From NCBI GenBank assembly GCA_034439715.1, contig JAWXAY010000032.1, positions 1 through 15,600 of the forward strand: a stretch of DNA of 15,600 nt, given 5' to 3'. Below are positions 1-15,600 of the stretch, piece after piece. Below the pieces are notes generated by a model, which did not search any database, was not told where the DNA came from, and saw nothing but the letters and a program-made list of their open reading frames with translations. How positions within the stretch are numbered: position 1 is the stretch's first letter; every line of letters begins with the position of its first letter. The DNA is from Pseudomonadota bacterium (GTDB taxonomy: Bacteria; Bdellovibrionota; Bdellovibrionia; Bdellovibrionales; SG-bin7). A program made the translations under genes and the position numbers.

Positions 1-94
1 AAGACTTGCAAGTCGTGGTGAACAAGTGCCAACACCACTCGAACACGCCCGCAAAACTCGAGCCGCATAGTCAATAACCGCCCTTATGACTTGG

Positions 95-805
95 TTACAA
101 TAGGTCGATGACATGACGAAGTTGTTTCAAGCCATCCTTAAGAGGAGCGAGACGTTTGGAAGGAATGTTTTGAAAGTGTTCTTTGTTGTATGTAGGAAGG
201 CACTCCAACAAGTGGGCGACTCGTGCTTCAATTCCACTCATCTCCATTTCAATCTGACTCACCTCTCCAGTTAAAAGCAAAGTCTCTTCATCAAACTCAA
301 AATTTTCTGTCTCAGCCATATCGGCTTCTGTCAGGGCTTCCACTTCGGCGATGGCTCGTAAATTTTGATCTGACTCTAGTGAATTCAATTCTTTTGAAAG
401 TTCATTTCGCGTGAGCTTGCCAGTTAAAACTTCGACCGTGAGTTCAGCATATTTAGGTTCCGAGATATTCTGTTTCGCCAAGAGAAGTCGGTAAGCCGTA
501 TCCCAAGGAATCTTGTTGGGCTTTAGATTTTCTATGTGCTTGCGGTATTCATTCAGAACCGACAAGTGTTTAGAAATGGTTGAATAATCAAAAGAGAACT
601 CTGTACTACAATAAGCCTCGAAGGATTTGTGACCTTGTGCTTTGAATGATTTGTGTTCTCTGATTGTTTCCAAAGTTACCCAGAAAATCAAAAGACCTTT
701 CTGACAGTCGGCAAATCTTTCTTTTGCCTTCAATAGCAAGGTTTCATCTTGGTCATTCCTTCTCGTTAATTTTGTGTCTGTTTTAGGATTGTTGGTTGTT
801 GTCAT
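95..805 (-). CDS. Hypothetical mobile-element protein, putative DNA-binding (DUF3102-like segment)
   Basis: 236-aa ORF; GHKSFEAYCSTEFSFDYSTISKHL resembles the 'G-x-x-SFEEYC...HTH' segment common in phage/plasmid proteins; overlaps upstream gene. Confidence 0.6.
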   Translation of the reverse strand: MTTTNNPKTDTKLTRRNDQDETLLLKAKERFADCQKGLLIFWVTLETIREHKSFKAQGHKSFEAYCSTEFSFDYSTISKHLSVLNEYRKHIENLKPNKIPWDTAYRLLLAKQNISEPKYAELTVEVLTGKLTRNELSKELNSLESDQNLRAIAEVEALTEADMAETENFEFDEETLLLTGEVSQIEMEMSGIEARVAHLLECLPTYNKEHFQNIPSKRLAPLKDGLKQLRHVIDLL

Positions 806-1151
806 TTAATCTCCCTTGGCCTCTTGAAAAGTTGCGCGGCGCAACTTTTTTCTCGCCACTTACTGATTCTGAGTTAATCAGCTTTCTATGCTTCCGCTTT
901 TCAGTTTGAGTCATTTGATAGGGACGGTATGGATGGAGTGGACAAATCACTATCGAACAGTCGCGGATGCGCGAAACGGCGTTCTCAAATGCCATGCACT
1001 CGTGGCACTTCATTTTGAGGACTGCCGCTCGACCAGCTTTACCAATGAGCACTTTTTCAAGTCTTTTTTGAATTGGTGCCGGAGCCCTCTGTATGTACTC
1101 CCTTATTTTCTTGTCGTTATCATCAACCGTGATTTTCTCGGCTATTTTCAC
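783..1151 (-). CDS. Small phage-type zinc-finger protein
   Basis: KMKCHECM...IRDCSIVICPLHPYRPY (CxxC...CxxxxCPLxPYR); 4-nt overlap with rep-like gene. Confidence 0.7.
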   Translation of the reverse strand: MKIAEKITVDDNDKKIREYIQRAPAPIQKRLEKVLIGKAGRAAVLKMKCHECMAFENAVSRIRDCSIVICPLHPYRPYQMTQTEKRKHRKLINSESVSGEKKVAPRNFSRGQGRLNDNNQQS

Positions 1152-2083
1152 TTCAAACCTCGCTTTCTTATGAGTCCTGGGACTCTGTTAAACATCTTGG
1201 ACTCCCCAACGGAGAGCGGAGCTGACAGAAACTTGTCGAGGCGTTTCTGGAACTTGCCGCCAAGATCGTAGTTAGTGGAAATACGATATTTTTCTATTAC
1301 CTTTTTCATGCGATAAAAGTTTGAGCCGTCAATCCTTCGGAGTTGAGCCTCGGCTTCTTTTTGTCCACACACGTTAGAGAGAATCTGAAATAGGAGAATA
1401 TCTTTCCGTTGACTTGGCTTCGCCGCACTCACGTCGAATCCATAAAACTTGATTCTTCTGAATGGGTCCCTGATTTTCCAATACTGCGAAGCCTCACTAA
1501 ACCGAACTCCAATTTTAGATTCGTTGAGTCTTAATTCGATTCTTGTAGTAGGATTTTCGGGGCATTTACTCTGATGCCAGTGATGAGCATCATAAACGAC
1601 AACCTCGGTGCGAGTGGGTGAACCTAGATATAGACTCTCAGTCACGGAACCAAACTCAAGTGAGGTTGTTAGACGATAACGCCCATCCGTTCTCGAAAAA
1701 CCTCTTACGCGCATACCTCGCCGAGTGCGAGGAGTGTATATTTCAGCTTTGACCGTGTTGTATTCGGTGCCAACAAGATCAATGTTTAAGTGTTCACGCA
1801 ATATTTTAGGCTCGTCGAAGTCATCTACTACTGCATTTGTGAGAAGCTCACTAGCACGGAATGACGAGAACCCATTCGGATTAAAATCAATAACGGTGTA
1901 AGGAGCTTTAACCTTATTGTTCGTATGAAAGTAAACTCTTTGTCCTGTCACGAGAGTGGCAACAAACTCGTTTGTATAGGGGAACTTTGGTCTATACTTG
2001 TGTTTGATGTCTGCTATTAGAAGCAGATTCTTCATAAGAATTTTTTGTTCAGTCTTTAGAACTATCATATCAATCACCGCCAT
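1148..2083 (-). CDS. Divergent Rep_trans-superfamily replication initiator/relaxase-like protein
   Basis: IDFNPN, ILREHLNID (cf. isRxDxAxD), ESLYLGS...VVVYDA (cf. TxYxGS...xYdK), TRIELRL, in the order typical of Rep_trans. Confidence 0.6.
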   Translation of the reverse strand: MAVIDMIVLKTEQKILMKNLLLIADIKHKYRPKFPYTNEFVATLVTGQRVYFHTNNKVKAPYTVIDFNPNGFSSFRASELLTNAVVDDFDEPKILREHLNIDLVGTEYNTVKAEIYTPRTRRGMRVRGFSRTDGRYRLTTSLEFGSVTESLYLGSPTRTEVVVYDAHHWHQSKCPENPTTRIELRLNESKIGVRFSEASQYWKIRDPFRRIKFYGFDVSAAKPSQRKDILLFQILSNVCGQKEAEAQLRRIDGSNFYRMKKVIEKYRISTNYDLGGKFQKRLDKFLSAPLSVGESKMFNRVPGLIRKRGLK

Positions 2084-2267
2084 AGATTGTTCTCATGCTC
2101 ATCATATTGATGTAGTTGGAGTTGCCTGTAGAAAGACTGAATCGGTGAAACACGCTACTACTTTGCCTCGAATGCCGAGGAAGCAAGCCGACACAGGTGA
2201 AGTGAAAATGTCCGGTTAATTTTTTTGGAGAAGCCGTCTTTGGCTTACCGTGATTCGTCTCTTCCAT
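2070..2267 (-). CDS. Small hypothetical protein
   Basis: Fills operon gap, overlaps neighbours; ATG 2267 preceded by GGAAGGACGGCAGG. Confidence 0.3.
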   Translation of the reverse strand: MEETNHGKPKTASPKKLTGHFHFTCVGLLPRHSRQSSSVFHRFSLSTGNSNYINMMSMRTIYGGD

Positions 2268-2469
2268 CCTGCCGTCCTTCCGATTTATCAATTAGCTCTA
2301 AAATTGCGCCTTCCAGGCCATCTCGCCCGAACACTGACATTATTTTGCTGCGAAGGAGCATCCAATGAGGCGATGCACCCGCAACAACTTCAGCGGTATC
2401 GAGAAGAAATTTTCGGTGGCTTTTTAGTTCTTGGATGATTTGTTCGAGATCGTGTTTTCTAATTGCCAA
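2245..2469 (-). CDS. Small helical hypothetical protein
   Basis: 74-aa ORF, TTG start preceded by AAGGACGGACGG; protein-like amphipathic composition. Confidence 0.6.
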   Translation of the reverse strand: MAIRKHDLEQIIQELKSHRKFLLDTAEVVAGASPHWMLLRSKIMSVFGRDGLEGAILELIDKSEGRQDGRDESR

Positions 2470-2595
2470 GCCGTCCGTCCTTTCAAGCTCAATGAAGTAA
2501 CGGGCTTATAATAATCGAATTTGAATTTTCCTGTTTGATGTGGTCTGAGCGATAACTTTGTAAGCTGGAGTAAGACAGATTTGCAACATGGCTAA

Positions 2596-3213
2596 CTAAG
2601 TCAGATTCTTAATCCATGTCCTAACGGTTTCTTGAGGAAGAATAGCATCGTGAGCACAAGCAATGCCGTTCAAATCGAGTTTTATTCTCCAGGTAATAAT
2701 CTCGGTCAAATATCTTGCTCGTGCTCTGGTGAGCTTGAGAACGTCACCCCAAAATTTGTTACTATCGACCCGTTGCAGTTCTTCATTGAAGTTGCGTACA
2801 AGTGAGCGAACCGTCCCATGGTCAATGTAACAGTTCTTTCTTTTAACTGGCTTCATTCTACTCCTCTTTTCAATTAGAACTTTTTCTTCTCGCCGTGTCC
2901 TTCCATCCTTTTTCGTTTGGTCGTTTTCGTCTGTTTGCATGATTTTGCCGAAACGCTTCCGAAACGGAATAGCACGTTCGTTGAAAGGAGCACTACAGGG
3001 CCTTTTCTTTGGAGCAGGAATTGCCAAAGCAAAAACATTTGAGTTTGGATTTTGAACCAATTCGCTCAGGCAAAGGCAACTTACTACAACGCCGCTGAGG
3101 TTCGATCTACACTTGAGATCAAAAGCCTCGATCTCTTTAATATTAGGTATCTCGTCCCGAAGGAAATTAAAATTGTAGCGTTTGGAATGTCGAGCTTCAT
3201 TTTTTATTTTCAT
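2596..3213 (-). CDS. Hypothetical basic protein
   Basis: Long ORF co-oriented with operon; ATG 3213 preceded by GGATGGACGGACGGACGG. Confidence 0.5.
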   Translation of the reverse strand: MKIKNEARHSKRYNFNFLRDEIPNIKEIEAFDLKCRSNLSGVVVSCLCLSELVQNPNSNVFALAIPAPKKRPCSAPFNERAIPFRKRFGKIMQTDENDQTKKDGRTRREEKVLIEKRSRMKPVKRKNCYIDHGTVRSLVRNFNEELQRVDSNKFWGDVLKLTRARARYLTEIITWRIKLDLNGIACAHDAILPQETVRTWIKNLT

Positions 3214-3245
3214 CCGTCCGTCCGTCCATCCATTCAACCCGCGAT

Positions 3246-3428
3246 CTATACTTCGATAGTCAAATTCTTATCTGCCAATGCCGACTCCAAGATGGCAGCA
3301 ATTAGACTCTGCCTTGTGACTTTTTCTTTTTTTGAAAGCCGATCAAGTTTTTGCATGATGGGCTTGGGGATTCTTACGGTGACCGTGCTTAGTTCATCAC
3401 CGCTGTACGAGCGTTTCACTATTTTCAT
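3246..3428 (-). CDS. Ribbon-helix-helix (CopG/Arc-like) DNA-binding protein
   Basis: TVTVRIPKPIMQKLDRLSKKEKVTRQSLIAAILESAL; GAGGTG SD upstream of ATG 3428. Confidence 0.8.
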   Translation of the reverse strand: MKIVKRSYSGDELSTVTVRIPKPIMQKLDRLSKKEKVTRQSLIAAILESALADKNLTIEV

Positions 3429-3473
3429 TTGTTTCACCTCTCATTGCCTCAGTATGACGGATGGTGAACCAAA

Positions 3474-3493
3474 TGCAATCTAAACAGATTGCA
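3474..3493. promoter_or_regulatory. Perfect 8-bp inverted repeat, putative operator
   Basis: TGCAATCT-aaac-AGATTGCA, plus a further AGATTGC copy at 3497-3503; overlaps the -35 box. Confidence 0.6.
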
Positions 3494-3517
3494 AATAGAT
3501 TGCGCAGCGCGTATAAT
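3489..3517 (+). promoter_or_regulatory. Sigma70-type promoter of recombinase gene
   Basis: TTGCAA-17 bp-TATAAT, 6 nt upstream of ATG 3524. Confidence 0.75.
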
Positions 3518-3523
3518 AAAGGA

Positions 3524-4147
3524 ATGAAGCCAAAACGCTATATTCTATATTTGAGAATCTCGACCGCTGAACAGAACAGCGATCTTCAGCGTCGGGAACT
3601 AGTTGAATACGCAAACCGACGTGGATGGACGTATGAAATTCTTGAAGACAAGGCGAGTGGCACCCATGCAAATCGTCCCGCACTTCAGAAGCTCTTACAG
3701 TTGGCTCGAAGCCGTAAGATTGATGGGATTGCCGTGTGGAAGTGTGACCGACTGTTTCGCAGCTTGAAACACGCGGTTGTCACATTGGCAGAACTTACCG
3801 AGCTTGGTGTTGAGTTTTATAGTCACAAAGATCAGATTGACCTTTCCACTTCCACGGGTCGGTTAATGGCAAATATGCTCATGGCATTCGCGGAGTTTGA
3901 AGCCGACCTTATTAAATCTCGCGTCGTTTCAGGACTCCAGGCCGCCAAAGCGAGAGGCGTCCAGCTAGGCCGTCCTAAGATTGTAAATGACGAAGTTATT
4001 CGGCAAGTGTTGGATTTGCGATTCAACCGTAAGTTGTCCATTCGTCAGATAAGTGAAGCACTAGCGCACAAAGTTTCAAAAACAAGTATCGAAAGAATCT
4101 TAAGAGATAACGACCCGTCAAAACCCACTTTAAAAAAGTCGGTTTAA
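3524..4147 (+). CDS. Small serine recombinase (resolvase/invertase family) with C-terminal HTH
   Basis: YLRIST catalytic Ser motif, SG...RPALQKLL, DRLFRS, GRLMANMLMAFAEFE, GRP + HTH (LSIRQIS). Confidence 0.95.
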   Translation: MKPKRYILYLRISTAEQNSDLQRRELVEYANRRGWTYEILEDKASGTHANRPALQKLLQLARSRKIDGIAVWKCDRLFRSLKHAVVTLAELTELGVEFYSHKDQIDLSTSTGRLMANMLMAFAEFEADLIKSRVVSGLQAAKARGVQLGRPKIVNDEVIRQVLDLRFNRKLSIRQISEALAHKVSKTSIERILRDNDPSKPTLKKSV

Positions 4148-4239
4148 GGGACGGATAGATTTCATCCTGAGTCCATCTTGCCACTCAACTTTGACCACTC
4201 AGAAAACTGTAGTTTTTGGCGGAAGCCGTAAGGAGATGT

Positions 4240-5094
4240 ATGCGCGTATTTTACGACAAGAGACAATCAGTCAAGGACAACCAGAGTTTCTCACCAAGCT
4301 CTCAGAAGTCTGCGTTGCTTGCAGCGGAGTGGAAGAGACTGGGACTTCCCGTGGACATTCAAACTTTCAAGCCCGCGACTCGAAGCGAACTCTATCAAGT
4401 ACACGACCGTGAGTATGTGGATGGCGTTCTCGATCTTAACCGTGACAATGGTTACGGCAATAGAAATCCAAAAGTCGCTCAGTCACTTCCGTGGGTCGTC
4501 GGTTCATTCCTCAATGCTGTGAAGTATTCGATGAAGACTCGACAGGATTCATGGAGTCTCACATCGGGTGCCCACCATGCCCATAAATCGTACGGTTCGG
4601 GTTTTTGCAGTTTTAACTTTCTCATGCTTGGAGCACTCGCTGCTAAGAATCTGGGAGCAAAGAAAATAATTTTGATCGACCTAGATCGTCACGCGCCAGA
4701 CGGATGCCGACAGATTCAAAAAGAAATCGGCCTAAGCGAGTTAAGTATCTATGCCTTCGGCGATCAAATGCTCCAGACGGTCGAAGATACCGAAGGTTGG
4801 CTCAAGAAATTGCCGCCAATTTTACTTTCGCTTTGTGACGGAGCCGATCTTGTTTTTTTCAATGCTGGAGTAGACCCAGCAACGACGGATTTTTTGGGCG
4901 GGTTGATGACTGCCGAACAAATGTCTCGCCGAGATCGCCTCGTCTTTGAAACAGCAAAGATGTTTAATGTGCCCGTCGTTGTCTCTCTCGCGGGCGGTTA
5001 CTCTCGTGACAGTAAAGGAACCCCTCGGCCCACAGTTGAATTGCATACAGAGACGATGCGGCAGCACCTTTTAGTTCACGGAGTTCAATCATGA
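4240..5094 (+). CDS. Histone deacetylase (HDAC/AcuC/APAH) superfamily Zn-dependent amidohydrolase
   Basis: VHDREYV, GAHHA, GSGFCSFN, DLDRHAPDG, NAGVDP, LAGGY; AGGAG SD before ATG 4240. Confidence 0.92.
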   Translation: MRVFYDKRQSVKDNQSFSPSSQKSALLAAEWKRLGLPVDIQTFKPATRSELYQVHDREYVDGVLDLNRDNGYGNRNPKVAQSLPWVVGSFLNAVKYSMKTRQDSWSLTSGAHHAHKSYGSGFCSFNFLMLGALAAKNLGAKKIILIDLDRHAPDGCRQIQKEIGLSELSIYAFGDQMLQTVEDTEGWLKKLPPILLSLCDGADLVFFNAGVDPATTDFLGGLMTAEQMSRRDRLVFETAKMFNVPVVVSLAGGYSRDSKGTPRPTVELHTETMRQHLLVHGVQS

Positions 5095-5519
5095 CATCGC
5101 ATGAAACTATTATCGAATGCGCCAAGCGGCTTATTGAGCGAAATGAACTGGCTCGCGCTATTAGGTTGTTAAACAAAGCAGCGAAATGGTTTCCGCGTGA
5201 AGTAAACATCTGGAGGCTACTCGGTGTGGCTCAAGGAAGTAGCGGCAATCATCTAGGTGCTCGTGCTGCATTCTTAGAGGCCGTCGATCTTAATTTAGCC
5301 GACATTGATGTTGCCAATTTAATCACGACCTTCTGGCCGACCGACGAAGCAAAACAGGGCATTGAAATTTTGGAATCGCAGTTTGAAAGTCTTAGCCCCG
5401 CAGCAAAAGAAATTGCGATCAATAGTGTTTGCGAAGCAATGCGAGTGGGCGTCCTACAGTTCGACTGGCTTCCATCCGTCGTCCAGCAACATTACGTCAC
5501 GGTGTACGGCAAGCCGTAA
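5091..5519 (+). CDS. TPR-repeat protein
   Basis: AIRLLNKAAKWFPREVNIWRLLGVAQGSSGNHLGARAAFLEAVDL TPR pattern; ATGA overlap with HDAC gene. Confidence 0.75.
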   Translation: MTSHETIIECAKRLIERNELARAIRLLNKAAKWFPREVNIWRLLGVAQGSSGNHLGARAAFLEAVDLNLADIDVANLITTFWPTDEAKQGIEILESQFESLSPAAKEIAINSVCEAMRVGVLQFDWLPSVVQQHYVTVYGKP

Positions 5520-5535
5520 TACTGTACGGCTTGTC
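5508..5535. terminator. Stem-loop at end of HDAC-TPR operon (no U-tract)
   Basis: CAAGCCGTA (5510-5518) / TACGGCTTG (5525-5533) inverted repeat. Confidence 0.35.
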
Positions 5536-5602
5536 GGATATTCAGACGACTAGTCGTTGCTGCGTGGACTGCAATTAAAAAAGGGAGAACGATATTAGGT
5601 TC

Positions 5603-5899
5603 ATGGAAATTAAGATTGCCAAAAGTTTGACCGCACTTATGAAGCAACGAGGACTCTCATTGAGAGAGTTGTCGAAGCTCAGTGGTGTTCCTCCCACGAC
5701 GCTGAATGAGTGGCTATCGAATCGTCCACCTCGTAACCCAGTGCAAATAAAGAAAGTCGCTGAAGCGTTGGATGTGTCACTCAACTTTCTATTGTTCAAC
5801 GAAGAAGACAAACACGACCCACTCCAACGAATTTTGGTTGAGGATATATTCTCTGGAAATTTTCAGATCACTGTAAAGCGGCTGAAGTTCGATAAGTAA
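5603..5899 (+). CDS. XRE-family HTH transcriptional regulator
   Basis: LMKQRGLSLRELSKLSGVPPTTLNEWL...KVAEALDVSLNFLL. Confidence 0.92.
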   Translation: MEIKIAKSLTALMKQRGLSLRELSKLSGVPPTTLNEWLSNRPPRNPVQIKKVAEALDVSLNFLLFNEEDKHDPLQRILVEDIFSGNFQITVKRLKFDK

Positions 5900-5914
5900 A
5901 GGAGTGGGCAAATT

Positions 5915-6964
5915 ATGAATAAATTGATTTTACTTTCTATTATTTTGTCGTTGACGGGATGTGCCTCAGTCACTCCACAACAGGAGTCCGCTCGCAATGC
6001 ACTTCAGGAAAAACATTTTTATAAGTACGACTCTCATGAGGATTTTTTTCAGGCGATTGAGAAAAATAATTTGGCGGCGATCAAATTATATTTGGCATCC
6101 AGGGACAGCTATCCTTATAGCTCAAATACAGATCGTGAAGACCTAGAAACCATAGGGTGGTACGCGATGGAGCGAGCGTTAAATAAGCCGCCGATTCTAA
6201 CTGAGTTTCTCAAATTCAAGGTCACCCAGCAAGGTGCGAAGGATATGGTCTGGTCAGAGTGGAAAGTGAAGTGCCCTGAAAGTCGAGACGAGATATTTGA
6301 AGCATTGCTGAAATACGGCGGGAGTCCCAAAAACCCAAGTCGGGCCGCCCACAAGCTCGTCAACAATGGCTGTGTTGACGAATTAAAGAGATATTTGGCA
6401 CTTTATCCAGCGGGCGCACGGGGATTTTATACCGATTCCTACACCCGATTTGGAATTAGGTACGATGCTAATGATGGAAGCTCTACCATCGACAAAAAGA
6501 AGTACGATAACTACCTACAAATCGGGGCAATACTAAGAGAAGGAAATGAAAGGGAGTGCCAAGCTAAGGTCTTAGAGGCTTGCAAAGCCAATAGTGAACT
6601 GAATGAATATATGATCGCACTTAAGTCCAAATATGACTTATGGGTGACAGAAGAAGCCAAAAGAAAAGTAGGCGAAGCAGAGTTCGAAGCCGAAGCAAAA
6701 AAACAGGAGAAAGATGAAGCCAGCGGTAAATATGATTTTGACCGCGCCTGTGGAGCCTTAAATCAAATCGAGTTCGATAAACGCATAATTGCCGATGAGA
6801 AAAAAATCACCGCTCAATCAGGCGTGGTGAACAAAGCTGTTCTTTATGAAACGACCCGTCGCTTACAGGCAGACTATGGATTCCTGGACCACTTAAAGAA
6901 AGAATACAAAAAGAAGTCCGGCAAGGCATTCAATCCAAAGGACTGTGGTAAGGACAAGCAATAG
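5915..6964 (+). CDS. Lipoprotein of unknown function
   Basis: Signal peptide with lipobox LTGC; GGAG SD; weak ankyrin-like segment (IFEALLKYGG). Confidence 0.8.
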   Translation: MNKLILLSIILSLTGCASVTPQQESARNALQEKHFYKYDSHEDFFQAIEKNNLAAIKLYLASRDSYPYSSNTDREDLETIGWYAMERALNKPPILTEFLKFKVTQQGAKDMVWSEWKVKCPESRDEIFEALLKYGGSPKNPSRAAHKLVNNGCVDELKRYLALYPAGARGFYTDSYTRFGIRYDANDGSSTIDKKKYDNYLQIGAILREGNERECQAKVLEACKANSELNEYMIALKSKYDLWVTEEAKRKVGEAEFEAEAKKQEKDEASGKYDFDRACGALNQIEFDKRIIADEKKITAQSGVVNKAVLYETTRRLQADYGFLDHLKKEYKKKSGKAFNPKDCGKDKQ

Positions 6965-7071
6965 TTTTAAGGGCAGGCGTAGTGAACAAGGTTGTCGCCG
7001 AACTCACCAAACAACACGACGAATCTGAAGATCAAGACTGACTCTACTTTTCTACGTAGAAACTTTTGCCG

Positions 7072-7653
7072 CTATGCACCCTCATTCATTGCCGTTCGCT
7101 GTTTCCATTCGCGTTTGATTTCAATCAACGTGATGACATCGTCGTAGGTGAATTGATCGACAAGGGGGTCCGACTTCAAGTCCCGTGGTGGTTCGCAAGA
7201 GTGTATTGGCGAACAAGGCTCAGAGGTCTGCGCTGTACGCCGTTCAATCTCAGGTGCAATTCCCAATGCTTTCATGGCGACGGTCTGAGTGGTTTCAAGG
7301 CTTCTCATGTAGTCTACGAGTTCCTTGGACGAGAGCCTTCCTTTTTCACCCTTCACGGATAAGTCTCGCATGGTAAGTGCCGCTCCTAACTTTGCCGTCT
7401 TGAAGATTTGGTTATTGGTTTCGAGTGCGTCTTGCAGGAGAGCATCTTGCTTCGCCGAAAGTACGTTATTCTGAAGTTCTTGTCGTCGGGTATTCCATTG
7501 CAGGGCGGGTGCTTGCTGCATGACGTATCTATATCGCCGAGGCGTGAAGCCCTTCACATTGATAAGGAAGTCTCGAACAGATTTGTTCGCGTGGTTGGAG
7601 GCCCATTCAAACTGTAGGTCGTGAATCGAATTTACAACCTCACCCCTCGCCAT
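7072..7653 (-). CDS. Hypothetical phage-like helical protein (possibly terminase small subunit-like)
   Basis: AAGGGAG SD before ATG 7653; N-terminal HTH-like region followed by coiled coil; family assignment weak. Confidence 0.5.
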   Translation of the reverse strand: MARGEVVNSIHDLQFEWASNHANKSVRDFLINVKGFTPRRYRYVMQQAPALQWNTRRQELQNNVLSAKQDALLQDALETNNQIFKTAKLGAALTMRDLSVKGEKGRLSSKELVDYMRSLETTQTVAMKALGIAPEIERRTAQTSEPCSPIHSCEPPRDLKSDPLVDQFTYDDVITLIEIKREWKQRTAMNEGA

Positions 7654-7964
7654 TTTATCTCCCTTGTATGCCACGTCTGTACCATGCAGTGGCATCTCTT
7701 CTTCGGAAGACCGCGATCAATTCAGGTAACTTTCAGTAACCTCTTGTCTTGGACTCCGCAGGTCACTGGGACCGTTGGGTGTCCATAGGGCCTGATTGGC
7801 GAGCGAGTCGCACAGCGAGATGAAGAAGTCGAACTCAACATTGCTGTGACCTGATCATGCCCACGCTATTACTTCTTTGACCAGTTGGATTAACGCATCC
7901 TATGCTGAAATCCTGCGTCACAACATGAGAGACTGGAAAAACGGATGGAACCCTAGAGAACGGA

Positions 7965-8588
7965 GTGGGCGTCATTAAATCATTGCGTCCTAACTTCATT
8001 GTCGGCATTGGCGGCTCGGCGGGTGGTCTTAGCGCATACAAGGCGTTCTTGGACTCTTTGCCGTCTGATACTGGTATGGCCTTTGTCATTGTTGCTCATC
8101 TCATGCCCACCGCCAACAGTCAGTTGGCGCAAATTCTGTCACGTCACACGAAGATGAAAGTATCCCTGGCTTCTGCGGCGATGCCGATCTTCGCGAATCA
8201 CGTCTACGTAAATCAACCGAACGCCAAGATTCTAATTGAGAATTATACCTTCAAAGTTATTTCCCCGCTAACTCGTGAGGTGAATAAGCAAATAGATTTG
8301 TTTTTGACTTCATTAGCTGAGGCTATGGAGAAAAATGCGATTGGCATTATCCTCTCTGGTTCTGGCAGCGACGGCTCTGAAGGATGTAAACAAATCAAGG
8401 CAAAGGGCGGAGCAACCTTTGCTCAGGACAAGTCTGCCGAATTTACCGGAATGCCCGTCAATGCTCAAGCTACAGGCTGTGTTGACTTCGTTCTGCCTCC
8501 CAACAAAATTTCAGAAAAACTACAACGCTTGGTAAGCCCTTCACTAAATAAATGGCGCAGATTAGCGGCCAAGCAGGCTAAAAAATAA
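7965..8588 (+). CDS. cheB: Stand-alone CheB-type methylesterase domain
   Basis: GIGGSAGG, VAHL, ILSGSGSDG, MP..A, VDFVLPP; no receiver or CheR domain. Confidence 0.9.
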   Translation: MGVIKSLRPNFIVGIGGSAGGLSAYKAFLDSLPSDTGMAFVIVAHLMPTANSQLAQILSRHTKMKVSLASAAMPIFANHVYVNQPNAKILIENYTFKVISPLTREVNKQIDLFLTSLAEAMEKNAIGIILSGSGSDGSEGCKQIKAKGGATFAQDKSAEFTGMPVNAQATGCVDFVLPPNKISEKLQRLVSPSLNKWRRLAAKQAKK

Positions 8589-8646
8589 GTTTCTTTGGGC
8601 TATTATTGAAAACATGAAAAAAGAGTTCGTTGTGAGCAGCTTGGTT

Positions 8647-9273
8647 CTAAACTGCTTTTTTAAGCCAAATGATTTTTAACGGATTCTTAGCAATGTGTGA
8701 TTCACACCACTTCCTTGAACCCAACTTAAGGGCGATTTCTTTAGGTGAAAGAACGAAATCTACATGGTCAATTTCTATCGCCGCAATCGGCATTGATTCC
8801 GAAGCCGCAGTTGCAGGAGTTTGGGCCATGGTCATGCCACCTTTTTCCTTCAATACTTTAAGTCCTTCTGCGCCATCAGAACCTTCTCCAGAGAGAATTA
8901 TTCCAATGGACCCGCGAGCCTGATCGGCAGCTAAGGACAATATGAAATGGTCAACCGCGCTGTTCACTCCTTTGTCTGGGCGACGAATGAGAAGAAGCGA
9001 GTCGTCTTTGATTTCCATAAACTTATCAGGCGGCAGAATATAGATGTGATTAGCGACGAGTTGCTCCCGATGAGTGACTTCAACGACTGGCATTTTTGTC
9101 GAGCGAGAAAGAATCTCAGGAAGTAGGCTCTTTGACCCTCGCAGAACGTGAGAAAGTAAGACAAACGCCATTCCGGTATCGGTCGGCAGGTTTTCAATAA
9201 GCTCCTGAAAAGCGGCCAAGCCGCCAGCGGACGCACCGATTGCAACCACACATGGATAGTCTAATTCTTTCAT
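8647..9273 (-). CDS. cheB: Stand-alone CheB-type methylesterase domain (second copy)
   Basis: AIGASAGG, LSHV, ILSGEGSDG, SMP, VDFVLSP. Confidence 0.9.
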   Translation of the reverse strand: MKELDYPCVVAIGASAGGLAAFQELIENLPTDTGMAFVLLSHVLRGSKSLLPEILSRSTKMPVVEVTHREQLVANHIYILPPDKFMEIKDDSLLLIRRPDKGVNSAVDHFILSLAADQARGSIGIILSGEGSDGAEGLKVLKEKGGMTMAQTPATAASESMPIAAIEIDHVDFVLSPKEIALKLGSRKWCESHIAKNPLKIIWLKKAV

Positions 9274-9379
9274 ATCTTTGTTTACTCCGCCTTGCATCAA
9301 CCTGACCACACTTATTCAAAGCCAGGTGGAGAGGAATCAAAACAAGGCCATTCCGATGCGGTCAATCTCTGATAAGCAA

Positions 9380-9922
9380 CTAGAGAATGCGTCCCAAAAT
9401 CTGTGGGTGAAGTTTAGAAGCCTCGTCCTTACCTGACTTGTGGGTGACGGCAGTTTGGCCGTCAGGGTCCGTTCGGCCAAGGACTCGCCTGACCATTTCA
9501 GGATGCCATTGTTGACCTCGACGCTTGGTAGGAACTCCGGTGCTGCTCATGTATTGAGCGACTTGCCTGAGACTCATTCCCTTTTCACGTAGTTCTCTTA
9601 TGGCTTTGACTACTCTTTGTTCCCCCAAATGAGGACCGAGACGACCATTTACGATGCGGTGTCCATAAGCAGGTTGAGCGGGTTGCCCGTGAGGCTTATG
9701 CGAAGGTCTTCGCTCAATGTTGTGCCGCTTCAGGTTGGCCCGAACGGCTTCTTTTGAGGAACTTGTTTGTGACGCGATCTGGGCGATTGATAGCTTTTGA
9801 ACGGTGTATTTTTCGGTGAGGAAGCCCTTGTCTTTGTATTCGGGCGAATGTAGTTTCTGAGATGTATCAACAACATAGGCGGTTGAGGAACTTTCGTGTT
9901 TTCTGGCTTCGTCTTCCCGCCA
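9380..9922 (-). CDS. Start-less 180-aa ORF: HTH + serine-recombinase-type DNA-binding module
   Basis: Frame is open from TGG at 9922 (WREDEARK...LSIAQIASQTSSSKEAVRANLKR...PAYG...EQRVVKAIRELREKGMSLRQVA...VPTKRRGQQWHPEMVRRVL); in-frame TAA at 9926-9928; first ATG/GTG/TTG is only at 9628. Confidence 0.75.
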   Translation of the reverse strand, partial: WREDEARKHESSSTAYVVDTSQKLHSPEYKDKGFLTEKYTVQKLSIAQIASQTSSSKEAVRANLKRHNIERRPSHKPHGQPAQPAYGHRIVNGRLGPHLGEQRVVKAIRELREKGMSLRQVAQYMSSTGVPTKRRGQQWHPEMVRRVLGRTDPDGQTAVTHKSGKDEASKLHPQILGRIL

Positions 9923-10345: not shown

Positions 10346-11797
10346 TTATCCGTTTACATCCCTGTGAGCTTCACTATTTCGGCGCTTACTTTTTATTGGC
10401 AATTCAAACCAGAATATCGAGCCTGAACTTTCAGAAGATTTAACTCCAATCCTCCCGCCATGAGCTTCGACAAGTCGTTTAGCGGTGGCCAAGCCCAAGC
10501 CTGTGCCCTCGATATGAGAATTTTCGCCCCTCACAAATGGTTCAAAAATTCGCGCACGGATTTCAAAAGGAATTCCTGGGCCCGTGTCTTCGATTTCGAA
10601 GCGAAGCATTTCCCCTCGGATTTTATTTCGCACATGAATCTTTTTAACGGGAGACTCCACAATAAATTTAATTGCATTTCGCAAAAGGTTTTCTAACACA
10701 CTCGTCAGCACACCAGCGCTTGTCGCAACAAACACGGGCTGACCGTTAACAATCAATAACTCAATCCCCGCCTGCTTTGTCGACAATATATAGCTTGATT
10801 CTAAATCGTGAAGCAGAAAACGAACATCCGCAGAATCTGTTCTGTTAGTTACACCAGCGGCCTTTGCGTAAGCAAGAAGGTCGTCTGATAATGTGGTGGC
10901 GCGAGTTAAACTTCGTCTCACTATATCAAAATAGGGCCTTATAGAATTATCTTTATTCGACTCTTCAATTAATTGAGCCGCCATACCAATTGAACTCAGA
11001 GGATTTTTAATGTCATGTGCAATTCTGCCCGCAAATAAGTCTAATTCATTCACTTTTTCAGTCAGAAGCCTATTGTAATTTTCGACAAGTTTTTGATTCC
11101 CATTTAAAATTCGCAATAAAATGAATGCCACAATAACCGAAATTAATACGCTAAACAGTCCGAGGATAATACTCAGCGCACCAGTTTCTTTACGAATTGT
11201 TTCGATCTCAAGAGCTAAAATTGCGGAAACTTTAGCATCATGCTCGATAGTATTAGTAATGGCCTCACCCGCTTTATCAATTTCTGGTATCAATTCTTCT
11301 TTTAATATATTTTTCGCATTAATCAGATTACCAGCCTCTACGGCAGCCAAAACTATCTCGGCAATTTTTATTACATTATTAACTTCCTGTTGTACCTTTG
11401 TCCATAAACCTAACTCATCTCGCAACAATTCTAATGCCAAGTAAGATTCGCTCTCCTGCTTAAGCTCATTGATCTGCTTTTTTATATCTACTTCTATACT
11501 TTTTGCCTGTGGATGCAAAACAAAAGCCGTCATTTCGCTTCTGAGAGTCGAAACGGTCGTTCTTGCTTGGGCCAAAAAAATTATACTTGGTGCAGCTACC
11601 TCACTAATGGCTACAGCTGTCTCGTCCAAACGCTGAAGACGATTTTGTGTGTAAAAAATTGTAAAAACGAAACTCATAATATTAATCGCAAAGGCTAAGG
11701 GTAATGCGATTTTATATGATGATTTGATTTTAAAGTTTTTTAGCATCGCGTCCATTCCTTCTGCTAAATTAGAGGCCGATCCTACAGCAAACTTCAT
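10346..11797 (-). CDS. Membrane sensor histidine kinase (two TM, periplasmic four-helix-bundle-like sensor, HisKA, HATPase_c)
   Basis: IAHDIKNPL H-box, NLLRNAIKF N-box, DTGPGI, IFEPF, GTGLGL; true start may be 11755 or 11746. Confidence 0.93.
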   Translation of the reverse strand: MKFAVGSASNLAEGMDAMLKNFKIKSSYKIALPLAFAINIMSFVFTIFYTQNRLQRLDETAVAISEVAAPSIIFLAQARTTVSTLRSEMTAFVLHPQAKSIEVDIKKQINELKQESESYLALELLRDELGLWTKVQQEVNNVIKIAEIVLAAVEAGNLINAKNILKEELIPEIDKAGEAITNTIEHDAKVSAILALEIETIRKETGALSIILGLFSVLISVIVAFILLRILNGNQKLVENYNRLLTEKVNELDLFAGRIAHDIKNPLSSIGMAAQLIEESNKDNSIRPYFDIVRRSLTRATTLSDDLLAYAKAAGVTNRTDSADVRFLLHDLESSYILSTKQAGIELLIVNGQPVFVATSAGVLTSVLENLLRNAIKFIVESPVKKIHVRNKIRGEMLRFEIEDTGPGIPFEIRARIFEPFVRGENSHIEGTGLGLATAKRLVEAHGGRIGVKSSESSGSIFWFELPIKSKRRNSEAHRDVNG

Positions 11798-12047: not shown

Positions 12048-12080
12048 TTAAGGAGCTAGAATTATAGTAGTTTTCCACCA

Positions 12081-12093
12081 CCCCGCCAAATTT
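12081..12093 (+). repeat. att-like site 2
   Basis: CCCCGCCAAATTT; IHF-like TTTCACatagTTA at 12105-12117. Confidence 0.65.
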
Positions 12094-12176
12094 CTCTTAA
12101 ATAATTTCACATAGTTAGATACAATTTTTCCCAAGAGGCTCAACGGGTCTCGAACTTTCATCTCAAAGGATAGTTT

Positions 12177-12737
12177 ATGAAATTACTTATAGTTATTTCG
12201 TTTTTGTTAGCATTAGTCTCATGTAAATCTGTTGGGGTATTAGAATCTAATGATCCAAAAATAAAAATTCGCGATGGCTATTCATTGCTACAAGCTGGCC
12301 GATCTCTACCGGCGCTACGCTTATTCAATGAAGCTAATGATGCTTTGAAAAATCAAAACGATGAGTCTTTAAGAGCTCATGCACTTGTTGCCCTTGGCGA
12401 TGTTTATAAGTTTAAGGATGGCAAAGCACAAACTGAGAAAACTTATAGCTTAAATAATTCTGTCACTAACTATAAGGATGCTGCAAAAATACTATCGAAA
12501 ATGAAGTACAACCAACGTTTATCCATGGCATATTGGGGAATTGCCCAAGCTTATGCGCAAGAAAATAATACGAATAAAAGCTGTGAGTATATCAATAAAG
12601 CAGCCAAAGCTTATTATGAGCTCTCTGGTGGAGCTGATGATGAGTTAAATAAAAACGATATGGCTTCAGCAATTACTTACTTCGAGCATTCTAAAAAACA
12701 AAAATTTAAAGCTTCATGTGGGTCTAGTGTCAGATAG
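12177..12737 (+). CDS. TPR-like lipoprotein
   Basis: Lipobox LVSC; ALVALGDVY and AYWGIAQAYAQ TPR-like helices; AAGGA SD. Confidence 0.8.
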   Translation: MKLLIVISFLLALVSCKSVGVLESNDPKIKIRDGYSLLQAGRSLPALRLFNEANDALKNQNDESLRAHALVALGDVYKFKDGKAQTEKTYSLNNSVTNYKDAAKILSKMKYNQRLSMAYWGIAQAYAQENNTNKSCEYINKAAKAYYELSGGADDELNKNDMASAITYFEHSKKQKFKASCGSSVR

Positions 12738-12767
12738 GTTCTAAACTCGTTTACTTTGCCCCGCCAA
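12738..12767 (+). repeat. att-like site 3
   Basis: GTTCTAAACTCGTTTACTTTGCCCCGCCAA, 24/30 identical to site 4; starts immediately after the lipoprotein stop codon; IHF-like motif at 12776-12788 (minus strand). Confidence 0.75.
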
Positions 12768-12835
12768 AACTGCTGTAACCCATTGAAATCAAATTAGATT
12801 TTAATCTAGATGGATCTTTTATTCAAAGTATGTTA

Positions 12836-12868
12836 AGTTATAACTAGGTTATGCCGATATTATAACTA
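12836..12868. promoter_or_regulatory. Putative TA autoregulatory operator
   Basis: Palindrome AGTTATAACT (12836-12845); TTATAACTA repeated at 12838 and 12860. Confidence 0.5.
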
Positions 12869-12894
12869 AGTAAATTAGCTAATTGGAGATTAGA

Positions 12895-13128
12895 ATGAAA
12901 ACTTTAGCATTAAGACAAATTGGTAATTCTCAAGGGATCATTTTAGAAAAAACGATTTTAGAGCTGATTGGTGCCGATCAAAAAAATACCGTATTTGCTA
13001 TTCGGGTAGAAGACGGAGAGCTAATTCTTCGCCCTCTAAATGCCAAGGAACAAAAAGAAATGATAAAGAGAGCTGCAAAGGAGATTACGCAGGAACAGGC
13101 TCCCATTTTGAAAAAACTGGCAAAATAA
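12895..13128 (+). CDS. AbrB/MazE-family antitoxin
   Basis: LRQIGNSQGIILEK...VEDGELILRP; GGAG SD; C-terminal LKKLAK typical of Doc-associated antitoxins. Confidence 0.9.
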   Translation: MKTLALRQIGNSQGIILEKTILELIGADQKNTVFAIRVEDGELILRPLNAKEQKEMIKRAAKEITQEQAPILKKLAK

Positions 13129-13548
13129 ATGAACATAAAAATTGTCGGTTACATCTATCTAGATGAAGACGATGTTAAAGAAATCCATGATGATCAGATA
13201 TCTAAATTTGGTGGCTCTCTAGGAATACGAGACCATGCTGGCCTGGCAAGTGCAGTGGCTTAGCCACAAATGACCTATGGGAAAGAAGATTTGTATGGGG
13301 ATGTCTACGCTAAAGCTGCGGTTCTAGCGCACGGAATTTCAGAGGGACAACCATTTGTAGATGGAAATAAAAGGACAGCACTGGTATCTGCTTTGGCCTT
13401 TCTAAAAGTAAATGGTCATGGTGTTCTCCCGGCTGAGGAGCGCTTGTATGAGGCTATGATAGGAATTGCAAACAGAAAGACTTCTAAAGAAGACTTAGCG
13501 CAACTTTTTCGTGAGCTGGATTGCGAATTTAATACTCGAAGGGATTAA
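13129..13548 (+). pseudogene. doc: Doc (Fic-family) toxin interrupted by in-frame TAG at 13261-13263
   Basis: MNIKIVGYIYLDEDDVKEIHDDQISKFGGSLGIRDHAGLASAVA*PQMTY...QPFVDGNKRTA; ATG directly follows antitoxin TAA. Confidence 0.88.
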
Positions 13549-13549
13549 G

Positions 13550-13947
13550 ATGGCTATTTTTAGAAATTCGCTCATTTCAATTTTAGTGATTTTATCCAAT
13601 GCCTATGCAGACAAGAGCCAAATGTGATTGTCGAAGGTAGTTTGGAGTATACTATGTTTGTTAAATACATGTTAAAGGGACGCATAACGAACTTGGACAA
13701 AATTAAGTTTACCGCAAAACAAAAAAAAGAACTAAAAGAAGAGATAGGAATTGGATTCTTGGTAAGTCATGAAGATGGAAGTAAAAAAAGCTGCTCAAAA
13801 GGTAAATTTGAAATTCATCCCGATTCCATTCGAAAGTTTATATATCCGACAAATGAAGAAGCTGTTTTACTTGGTGGCGAATTAATCCCCTTGGTGAGTG
13901 CAATGTGTGCTGCTTCTGGATCTAGCGGGGCCTCGTCCGCAAAATAA
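13550..13947 (+). pseudogene. Secreted hypothetical protein with frameshift near 13610
   Basis: Signal peptide MAIFRNSLISILVILSNAYA from ATG 13550 is out of frame with the 13624-13947 ORF. Confidence 0.6.
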
Positions 13948-13983
13948 TCGCTCCAAAATCAGGCGGCGCTTGACCAACACCAA

Positions 13984-14013
13984 GTTCGATACTCGTCCCA
14001 TTTGCCCCGCCAA
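13984..14013 (+). repeat. att-like site 4
   Basis: GTTCGATACTCGTCCCATTTGCCCCGCCAA, lying between convergent gene ends. Confidence 0.75.
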
Positions 14014-14018
14014 TAAAC

Positions 14019-14909
14019 TTAAAGCATCCCGCGTTCTCGAAGCCACTTAAGAGACTACGTGATCACCGAGCTAAAAACTTCTTTTTTTCCAGGTCCGAGA
14101 TGCCCGCCTTCTGCTTTTTGACTCGTCACCTGCGCAGGTGATTCACTAAGTGCCGTCTGCAGGCTTTGAATGGATTGAATAGGTAGTTGTTCATCCTCCG
14201 TCGCATAAAGATTTAAGACCTGTTGATGGCTATGTAATTTTCGAACTTCGGTTTCGGGATCTTTGTATGCCAAATAATCCCATGTGATATGACCCAGTAA
14301 AAATGCAATCGGATAGCTCCACCATTCCCATTTATTTACTAGTTGTTGGGTGATTGCGGATTCGACTTTTCCAAAGGCATGAATGAGTAGAATCCCATCA
14401 ATTTCTGAGTTTCGAACTGCGGCCGTAATTGCAAAGGGAGCTCCAAAACTTGCCCCGGCAAAAATCATTCTATTTTTATTTACCCGCGGATCGATCCGTA
14501 GTTTTTCTATTAGCGCATCGACACATAAGTCGACTCGATGAATGGCCTTCTTTATCTCAGGAATTTCCTTTAGGTCCGCTAAGAAACTGCGTTGATTTGG
14601 TGCTTTGTAGGGGTAATCGACAGTCGCGTAAATCGCATTTAAATCGACGGGCAGCTGTTCAAGTGATTTTTCTCCAGTATCAAAACCTCCAAGAACAATC
14701 AATACGGGTAGTGGCAAATCAGTTTTTTTGGGGAGCGTTAGAAGGGCGGTATATCTGGTTCCATCACTCATCGAAAGTTCCAAGCGTTCACCAAAGCGTG
14801 GGGATTTCGACTCAGCTGGAGGTTCTGCAAAGATCAAAGAAGAGCTGAAAATGAAAGCTGTGAGACCACAAACCCACTTCATTTCTGGCAACATGTATTT
14901 AATTCGCAA
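14019..14909 (-). CDS. Secreted alpha/beta-fold hydrolase; TAG at 14055-14057 probably premature (true end 14019)
   Basis: GASFG nucleophile elbow, EDEQLP, GGH; read-through adds SLKWLRERGML then TAA. Confidence 0.85.
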
Positions 14910-15600
14910 TTCTTAACGTTGTCAGATTATCCAGCCGCATCACCTTTAAGATATCCAACTTTTTTTCAATGTCATCGCCGCTCCAGCCTTCAGAATGAAA
15001 AACTGCATTGGCGTCGCGGATAAGTTCAGGGTCATGGGTAAAGTTTCTCAGCCATTCGTGGAAGAGAAGAAAAGACAATTGCAAAGGCAAAAGTTTTGAA
15101 ATTATTTGTGTGGAATACGTGTAATCCGCACCAAAGACATAATAGGAGCCCTGTCTTCCCGGAATTTCCATTTGCCAATTTTTTGGAGTGCGCAAAACAG
15201 TTTGAATTAATTGGTTTTTTGCGTCCAAACAATTTGGCGGGATACGGTGGCGAAGTCCTTCATCCTCGACATCAACAACACCGTATGGTGCCTTCTTCCA
15301 TACATAGCGTTGACCGAGGACATTGGCCCAAATACCTTCGTAAAATCCTTTGAGATCATAATAGAGAACTTTATATTTTTTATCACTTTGGAAAGCCTTT
15401 AAGATACGCCGAAAGTTTACATCGGAGGGATCATTGGGCCCTACGACCTTTTCAAAATCTTTACTCATCTCGACATCAGAAATTTTATTGATGAGGTAGT
15501 CGAGATTATAAAATCCCTTAAAAGTACTCACTCGAGCTTGATCTTCGCAAAAAACAGTATCGCCGCCATTACCGACTGCGCCGCCCGCATAGGTTAAAGA
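14899..15600 (-). CDS. Secreted hypothetical protein with GGxxGNGGD motif, 5'-partial
   Basis: Frame is open to the window edge: SLTYAGGAVGNGGDTVFC...; LxFHEWLR motif. Confidence 0.75.
   Translation of the reverse strand, partial: SLTYAGGAVGNGGDTVFCEDQARVSTFKGFYNLDYLINKISDVEMSKDFEKVVGPNDPSDVNFRRILKAFQSDKKYKVLYYDLKGFYEGIWANVLGQRYVWKKAPYGVVDVEDEGLRHRIPPNCLDAKNQLIQTVLRTPKNWQMEIPGRQGSYYVFGADYTYSTQIISKLLPLQLSFLLFHEWLRNFTHDPELIRDANAVFHSEGWSGDDIEKKLDILKVMRLDNLTTLRIAN

Follow-up and report, generated by a model that had tools for sequence, protein, structure and literature searches.

Repeated sites with antisense peptide tails in a Bdellovibrionales contig resemble attR arms of large serine recombinases that target tRNA-Asp

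Introduction

Why should short repeated sites in a bacterial contig encode nearly the same peptide on their antisense strand, when no gene appears to begin there? The DNA analyzed here (hereafter, the window; 15,600 nucleotides) is the entire contig C32 of a 3.26 Mb assembly (completeness: 95.7%), whose host belongs to the order Bdellovibrionales as judged by the names of relatives' records. It carries four sites that all end in CCCGCCA on the plus strand, the same end as the genome's own tRNA-Asp(GTC). A first-pass annotation, made from the letters alone, had proposed that each module between these sites stores the C-terminal tail of an integrase whose gene spans the crossover. Based on comparisons with relatives, we consider it highly likely that the sites with tails are attR arms of a clade of large serine recombinases (LSRs) that targets tRNA-Asp, arranged as an array of integrase-less cassettes (Table 1).

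Table 1 Features of the window, with coordinates counted from its first letter
Feature	Position	Strand	Description	Score
HTH-like and Recombinase (PF07508) frame	9380..9922	-	180 codons; starts exactly at the site 1 TGG; no start codon there	
Site 1	9916..9922	+	CCCGCCA core of a putative attR, second LSR class	
Sensor histidine kinase	10346..11797	-	module cargo, located between sites 1 and 2	
Site 2	12078..12088	+	exact 11-nt copy of the 3' end of this genome's tRNA-Asp; left arm unlike the family	
Cassette leader	12089..12158	+	70 bp, conserved, apparently non-coding; ends with an inverted tRNA T-arm-like motif	
Cargo of cassette 12089-12766	12177..12737	+	186 aa; signal-peptide-like start; weak TPR match below cut-off	E 0.001
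Predicted LSR tail stored at site 3	12677..12766	-	WRGKVNEFRTYL..., 29 codons to stop	
Site 3	12737..12766	+	putative P arm and CCA core of an attR junction; same family as site 4	38.7 bits
Cargo of cassette 12767-14012	12883..13128	+	AbrB/MazE-like antitoxin; 75% identical homolog in G007 (L045)	
Doc/Fic toxin gene	13129..13548	+	broken by an in-frame TAG (13261-13263)	
ORF of cassette 12767-14012	13624..13947	+	107 aa; no Pfam match	
Predicted LSR tail stored at site 4	13959..14012	-	WRGKWDEYRTWCWSSAA, then stop; read from 14012	
Site 4	13983..14012	+	putative P arm and CCA core of an attR junction, tRNA-Asp LSR clade	56.0 bits, best in genome

Results

Sites 3 and 4 belong to a family found across the order

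Sites 3 and 4 form a direct repeat of 30 nt with 80% identity. Their DNA similarity is modest (24/31 positions, with two 22/31 matches elsewhere in the genome), and the resemblance extends to the peptides that they encode. Translation of the minus strand from 12766 gives WRGKVNEFRTYLT... up to a stop at 12677, and the first 11 residues of this tail (WRGKVNEFRTY) match exactly the tail of the LSR P0033; the natural counterpart of the site 4 tail is that of the LSR P0044, which ends in WRGKWDEFRT. In a six-frame scan of the 3.26-Mb genome, the pattern W[RLWSGY]x3[DN]x[FYLV]R[TN] had only four matches: sites 3 and 4, one directly behind an LSR gene of contig C83, and one unrelated. Upstream of the tryptophan, nine codons are open at site 3 and two at site 4 before a stop is reached, and the site 4 tail has no start codon upstream. 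Across 46 family sites, these upstream frames never exceed 56 open codons, and therefore the tails are stored at the sites, not expressed in place.

To describe the family, we searched 251 genomes of the order with the pattern GTTC-N7-GT-N8-CCCCGCCA (14 specified bases), which gave 26 matches in 18 genomes (the window's own two included), as opposed to two matches for the reversed pattern used as a control. This external comparison is the decisive control for the site family. The unspecified positions also agree in 23 of the 26 matches (judged by eye). With a matrix built from relatives' copies (26 seeds, among them the window's own two), sites 3 and 4 are the two best matches of the genome. 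A degenerate family site on another contig of this genome (C38:10823 of G000; 17.9 bits) perhaps belongs to the same array. One-base-deletion variants occur at L050 and L051, which were recovered with a pattern one base shorter, and a further scan with a shortened pattern yielded 14 loci that belong to other kinds of site, including two that follow tRNA-Ser. A related site family with the antisense peptide WRAL.TI.EP was seen at L052, L054, L061, and L064, with two copies downstream of tRNA-Ser (metagenome contigs). A pattern scan of viral sequences for the family site gave no matches.

The family is tied to tRNA-Asp by position. The gene lies upstream on the same strand in 6 of the 15 regions fetched around pattern matches (any other tRNA: 0/15), and these regions contain arrays of up to four sites spaced ~0.9–1.5 kb apart. 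Conversely, among 60 stretches downstream of tRNA-Asp that were picked without regard to the site (54 of them longer than 5 kb), nine carry a site, always on the same strand as the tRNA. Side observations were made on the DNA directly behind the tRNA: at L134, L157, and L037, its first 90–147 bp are duplicated behind a downstream site (93–99% identical). In the P' arms of other Asp-targeting LSRs (L109, L120, L147, G089, C47 of our own assembly, and others), ~30–40 nt behind tRNA-Asp, there is a recurrent GTGAC, which corresponds to the anticodon loop of tRNA-Asp in reverse complement.

In our assembly, the tRNA-Asp gene closes C58 and runs on into C47, and C32 is not joined to it. The genes to the right of site 4 gave no synteny match in five genomes. 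Contigs from run X5, possibly of the same sampling campaign, span sites 2, 3, and 4. The left end of the window (1–98) is a 98-bp repeat, identical at both ends of C80 and at the starts of C3, C10, and C76; it is probably an insertion-sequence end at which the assembly broke. The region 95–9922 resembles a single integrated element that ends at site 1 and contains a resolvase (3461–4147), HDAC-like, TPR, and HTH genes, two CheB-like genes, and several orphan ORFs. An orphan protein of 210 aa at 14899–15531 has a paralog on C41 (62% identical).

The tails match a clade of LSRs whose genes cross into tRNA-Asp

The LSRs with matching tails form a clade of ~500-aa proteins with Resolvase, Recombinase, and zinc ribbon domains. 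P0033 and P0044 match PF00239, PF07508, and PF13408, all above cut-off, and the best fold matches of the clade LSR are serine integrase-att complexes. The statement in the first-pass annotation that some LSRs end in W-x4-D-x2-R-T proved correct: the tail W-x4-[DN]-xx-RT is known from protein sequences in 7 of 120 P0033 homologs, including P0033 and P0044. It is absent from most genomic copies of the LSR. The other homologs read through into the tRNA (55), stop no more than four residues after the tryptophan (24), have other tails (10), or lack the anchor (24), and the motif occurs in 5 of 149 more distant representatives.

In this order, LSR genes frequently point toward a tRNA 3' end and enter the antisense tRNA in any of the three frames (other clades of the same LSR subfamily face tmRNA). 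Six of the seven loci closest to P0033 (50–58% identical; 384 genomes) adjoin tRNA-Asp, and their LSR genes cross the junction in the frame of sites 3 and 4, ending in ...W-R-x-x-R-D-S-N; at the seventh, the gene is interrupted by a stop and no tRNA lies nearby. These in-frame crossings support the proposal that modules store the tail of a junction-spanning integrase gene, as far as sites 3 and 4 are concerned, and the minus-strand translations together with the sites of relatives bear out the antisense peptides themselves.

An island in G058 fixes the identity of the site. Its order is tRNA-Asp, LSR, ~7 kb of further DNA, and a family site, and the 1500 bp after this site match, at 91% identity, the sequence that immediately follows tRNA-Asp in G066. 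The island thus ends in the site, followed by DNA of the empty target, and therefore the site is attR. Both ends, attL and attR, share CCCGCCATTTTT, and no second serine recombinase was found in the island. By comparison with these relatives, sites 3 and 4 are with little doubt LSR attR arms that bear tails. The enzyme that made them was not found at home: a search of the assembly for the clade LSR gave no matches at E<=1e-40 (best: 1.4e-6). The integrases nearest the locus are not cognate. Both the local resolvase (3461–4147) and the genome's other LSRs were considered as the cognate enzyme and rejected, since they fall outside the clade.

The modules are integrase-less cassettes with a shared leader

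Judged from their gene content, the modules of the window are integrase-less cassettes. A profile of the 70-bp leader, built from 11 seeds (window copy included), had 27 matches in the fetched loci, nearly all directly behind a CCA-like end, and a family site follows within 0.5–5 kb in 14 of the 27. The leader had no match to an LSR in tblastn. In the cassette 12767–14012, the antitoxin and Doc genes form a pair that is 67.5% identical over 650 bp to a stretch of G007 (L045) that also contains a family site. In the Doc/Fic gene, a Q stands in the place of what we take to be the catalytic H of the Fic motif.

An alternative of some weight, although we give it clearly less than even chances, is that these cassettes are dead scars, i.e., full islands that lost their LSR by deletion, so that they are immobile and their tails record past selection only. 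Relatives carry stumps of LSR 3' ends, varied in length, either following tRNA-Asp or next to sites (L121, L140, L037, L043), and therefore decay by deletion also occurs. The broken Doc gene and the missing cognate LSR fit the same picture, as does the lack of a circle, an empty, or a cassette-less form in four low-depth, contig-only runs, which are uninformative on rare circles. However, the fixed leader opens cassettes in many genomes, which is easier to reconcile with a dedicated non-autonomous family than with deletion at random. Arrays of different families also share related toxin-antitoxin cargo, and the first 30 nt of site 4 are identical in G199 and G227; both observations speak against dead scars. 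Weighing the two sides, we put the chances that the cassettes can still be mobilized just short of even.

DNA binding and coding probably act on the same letters

Because the tail would lie within an attachment site, its conservation may reflect the DNA. The GTTC motif lies 29 nt from the CCA end in site 4 and 24 nt from it in tRNA-Asp, and GTCC lies at 18 nt in both (GTTT in site 3). In the part of PMC3783163 that deals with attP and attB of LSRs, the distal motif of the zinc domain (ZD) lies 5 bp further out in P. A 5-bp shift of this kind explains the D and the R-T of the tail at the DNA level, and the spacing suggests that the P arm is a binding half-site of the LSR. A mirror-image GTTC is present 14 nt before the TGG beside many other LSRs; none is evident in the P' arm of this clade. 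Right arms showed no enrichment of an IHF-like motif (11/53 vs 7.4 expected).

From these facts comes the reading that the constraint is on DNA only. Under it, the sites would still be attR arms of an LSR, but their peptide would be a by-product: the CCA end happens to spell W-R, the proximal motif D, and the distal GTTC motif R-T, and the enzyme can dispense with its tail. The 79 of 120 homologs with a read-through tail or a stop at W agree with this, as does the same GTTC geometry in other LSR clades, where it falls in other frames, and the frozen third positions that are neutral to the protein (C in codon 6, T in codon 8, and A in codon 9, each in 44 of 46 sites). We regard it as improbable, nonetheless, given how variation is distributed among the frames. 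In 46 distinct in-register sites (5 of 51 were dropped for indels or truncation), pN/pS for codons 3–10 is 0.43 in the tail frame and 0.68–1.05 in the other five frames. Column permutation gave p = 0.0075, and 0.0105 after thinning to 38 sites, values that overstate significance because the sites are related and most were chosen by a pattern-seeded matrix. Frequent variants are silent or put a similar residue in place (GAG/GAA 26/9, AGA/CGA 31/10, ACT/ACC 25/16, F/Y 34/8), stops make up 7 of 552 tail codons, and TGA replaces AGA/CGA in one case only. Moreover, codons 11–12 preserve an aromatic residue and then C/L beyond the 25-bp half-site.

Structure models also argue against a by-product. 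AlphaFold placed the DxxRT tail of P0033 in a confident helix (487–505; pLDDT 92 for residues 481–490 and 87 for 491–500) and the read-through tail of P0030 in coil (pLDDT 63 and 47 for the same intervals), with both models based on the same 90 sequences, seven of which carry the DxxRT tail. What displaced the DNA-only reading from its leading place was the relatives' LSR genes that cross the junction, together with the natural tails. Protein-level constraint thus probably acts besides DNA binding. The coding constraint suggested in the first-pass annotation is retained in part: the tail frame has the lowest pN/pS, but the frozen synonymous positions and the spacing of an attP arm show that coding is only part of it.

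That the repeats are attC sites of the integron kind, repeats that fold, or tRNA-like fragments arising by chance is very improbable: tandem cassettes of one or two genes with many toxin-antitoxin pairs would suit integrons, but the sites give no folding signal on either strand (mean z of +0.38 and +0.32, with 2 of 51 below -2 per strand, by a crude shuffle), C32 has no tyrosine recombinase (none of the genome's 14 PF00589 matches lies on this short contig), the sites are strictly linked to tRNA-Asp and the LSR clade, and the G058 island contradicts such an origin.

Sites 1 and 2 probably have other origins

Site 1 appears to be the attR of a second LSR class, in which the stored frame is far longer (~150–180 codons), with further examples at L160, L162, L164, L098, L173, and C83 of G000. 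The frame at 9380–9922 may be the C-terminal extension that an LSR acquires on the excised circle. In all four tRNA-Asp islands with both ends on a single contig (G006, G011, G089, and G090), the stored frame is the one in which the LSR runs into the tRNA, and the same agreement holds for one cross-contig pair at tRNA-Asn of this genome (C49, C10); all three reading frames occur among the five agreeing pairs (5/5). In G149, a natural fusion of 782 aa with two Recombinase matches crosses such a junction, and three further long proteins have the same extension (natural fusions P0270–P0273). These fusions were found via L173; a direct search with the window's 180-codon frame, a weak test, gave no match among 1127 candidate fusions. 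The LSR and the small frame on C83 of this genome (G000) are out of frame with each other, which would fit a junction between two different elements.

Site 2 had been read as WR followed, after a frameshift, by VVENYYN. The letters are present, but site 2 is not a member of the family: it scores <12 bits on the family matrix, has no match with <=3 mismatches in 250 other genomes, and VVENYYN belongs to another open frame (GGVVENYYNSSS...), so that a frameshifted tail is not supported. The site 2 stretch (12064–12088) also lies outside the interval 12677–14012 to which the claim had been assigned. It is probably the attR of another or a decayed element.

Discussion

How the array may have formed and what the tails may do

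In the mechanism that best accounts for these results, an LSR of the clade would insert a circular element at the CCA end of tRNA-Asp, with its gene facing the attachment site and crossing it, and with the crossover predicted within the CCCGCCATTTT core. While the element is circular or lies behind a more recent insertion, its gene would end in W-R-G-x-x-[DN]-E-[FY]-R-T-[YFW]-[CL], predicted to form a helix; after integration at the tRNA, the gene would read into the antisense tRNA (WRGGRDSNP...) or stop. The original tail would be left at the far end, in attR, and comparison with relatives shows sites 3 and 4 as arms of this kind. The same 30–40 bp, whose spacing is as expected, would serve as the enzyme's binding half-site. 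Repeated insertion at the restored tRNA, with loss or absence of the LSR, would yield the cassette array that is seen today, in an order of events that we infer.

We lean slightly toward the view that cassettes keep an intact tail because excision, in which the attL of an upstream LSR would recombine with any downstream attR, yields a circle where that attR completes the LSR gene, in which case the tails may be functionally interchangeable. In G314 and G335, an LSR lies at the tRNA with three and two family sites downstream, respectively, and given this arrangement, any downstream tail could complete the LSR gene upon excision. More tentatively, the tail swap may tune integration versus excision and act as a direction switch. 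Less likely still is the broad view that tRNA-targeting LSRs of predatory bacteria set their direction by rewriting their C-terminus and run an integron-like gene-capture array with a serine recombinase. Under it, the helix supplied by the circle (sites 3 and 4), or the HTH and second Recombinase domain (class of site 1), would license integration, the LSR form running into the tRNA would be excisive or silent, and integrase-less cassettes excised with an upstream LSR would complete its gene.

LSRs rank among the main tools of genome engineering, and their direction is commonly attributed to the geometry of the att sites plus a separate RDF. A clade whose own reaction exchanges the C-terminus, and of which two natural forms exist, offers a direct test of a third direction control. 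It also follows that LSRs mined from integrated genomes may carry the wrong tail when cloned. Through such arrays, Bdellovibrionales would accumulate small genes, toxin-antitoxin pairs among them, at tRNA-Asp. A layout of this basic kind had been put forward in 2011 for Dehalococcoides; new here are a defined tail with evidence of selection and a domain-sized variant.

Comparison with known systems

In the literature searched (main texts, mostly open-access, with the large LSR surveys outside this scope), no description was found of the tail, of tRNA-Asp arrays in Bdellovibrionales, or of the domain fusion, and the sections seen of PMC12884075 hold no mention of integrase genes that overlap att. 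The closest parallel is found in the ssrA islands of Dehalococcoides with the LSR DsiB (McMurdie et al. 2011, PMC3146451). In the parts of that article that describe them, these islands stand in tandem behind a stable-RNA gene, the dsiB gene overlaps attL with its 3' end and lacks a stop of its own, and 15 islands are without the integration module, which in ssrA-GI comprises six genes (DsiA, RecF-like, ParB, Mom, and others). Its authors propose that the LSR gene attains full function only in the circular form, or when it lies behind a neighboring island from which it receives the 3' fragment (PMC3146451). The system described here shares the tandem insertions, some of them module-less, and the LSR gene that crosses the junction, whereas its target is tRNA-Asp instead of ssrA (tmRNA) and its cassettes are mostly 0.5–2 kb. 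DsiB tails are divergent in the alignments shown in PMC3146451, in contrast to the conserved circle-type tail with codon-level constraint found here, and for the 70-bp leader and the stored domain of 180 codons we met no counterpart in the portions of PMC3146451 on the Dehalococcoides islands.

For Myxococcus phage Mx8, a review (PMC6070905) states, in the part on this phage, that attP lies within int and that, upon integration, the integrase gene acquires a different 3' end, with altered activity. Similarly, attP lies inside the integrase gene in our clade, and both tail forms occur among natural homologs. The Mx8 Int is a tyrosine integrase of a single phage without a cassette array, unlike the LSR and the array of tail-bearing cassettes described here. 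With the phage LSRs of LI/A118, phiC31, and Bxb1, our clade has in common the Resolvase-Recombinase-zinc ribbon order, the ~25-bp half-site, and the 5-bp distal shift, features that the relevant part of PMC3783163 reports together with a separate RDF that sets direction. It differs from canonical phage LSRs in that its gene runs across attP and variable DNA behind the tRNA makes up half of attB. To our knowledge, canonical phage LSR genes do not span attP. Integrons likewise hold ordered arrays of small, promoter-poor cassettes, many with toxin-antitoxin pairs and the newest beside the anchor; the array described here resembles them in its ordered small cassettes and toxin-antitoxin pairs, and differs in its serine recombinase, its non-folding sites, and its anchor at a tRNA 3' end. 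The tRNA-Asp cassette system works like the Dehalococcoides islands and Mx8, and is a member of neither.
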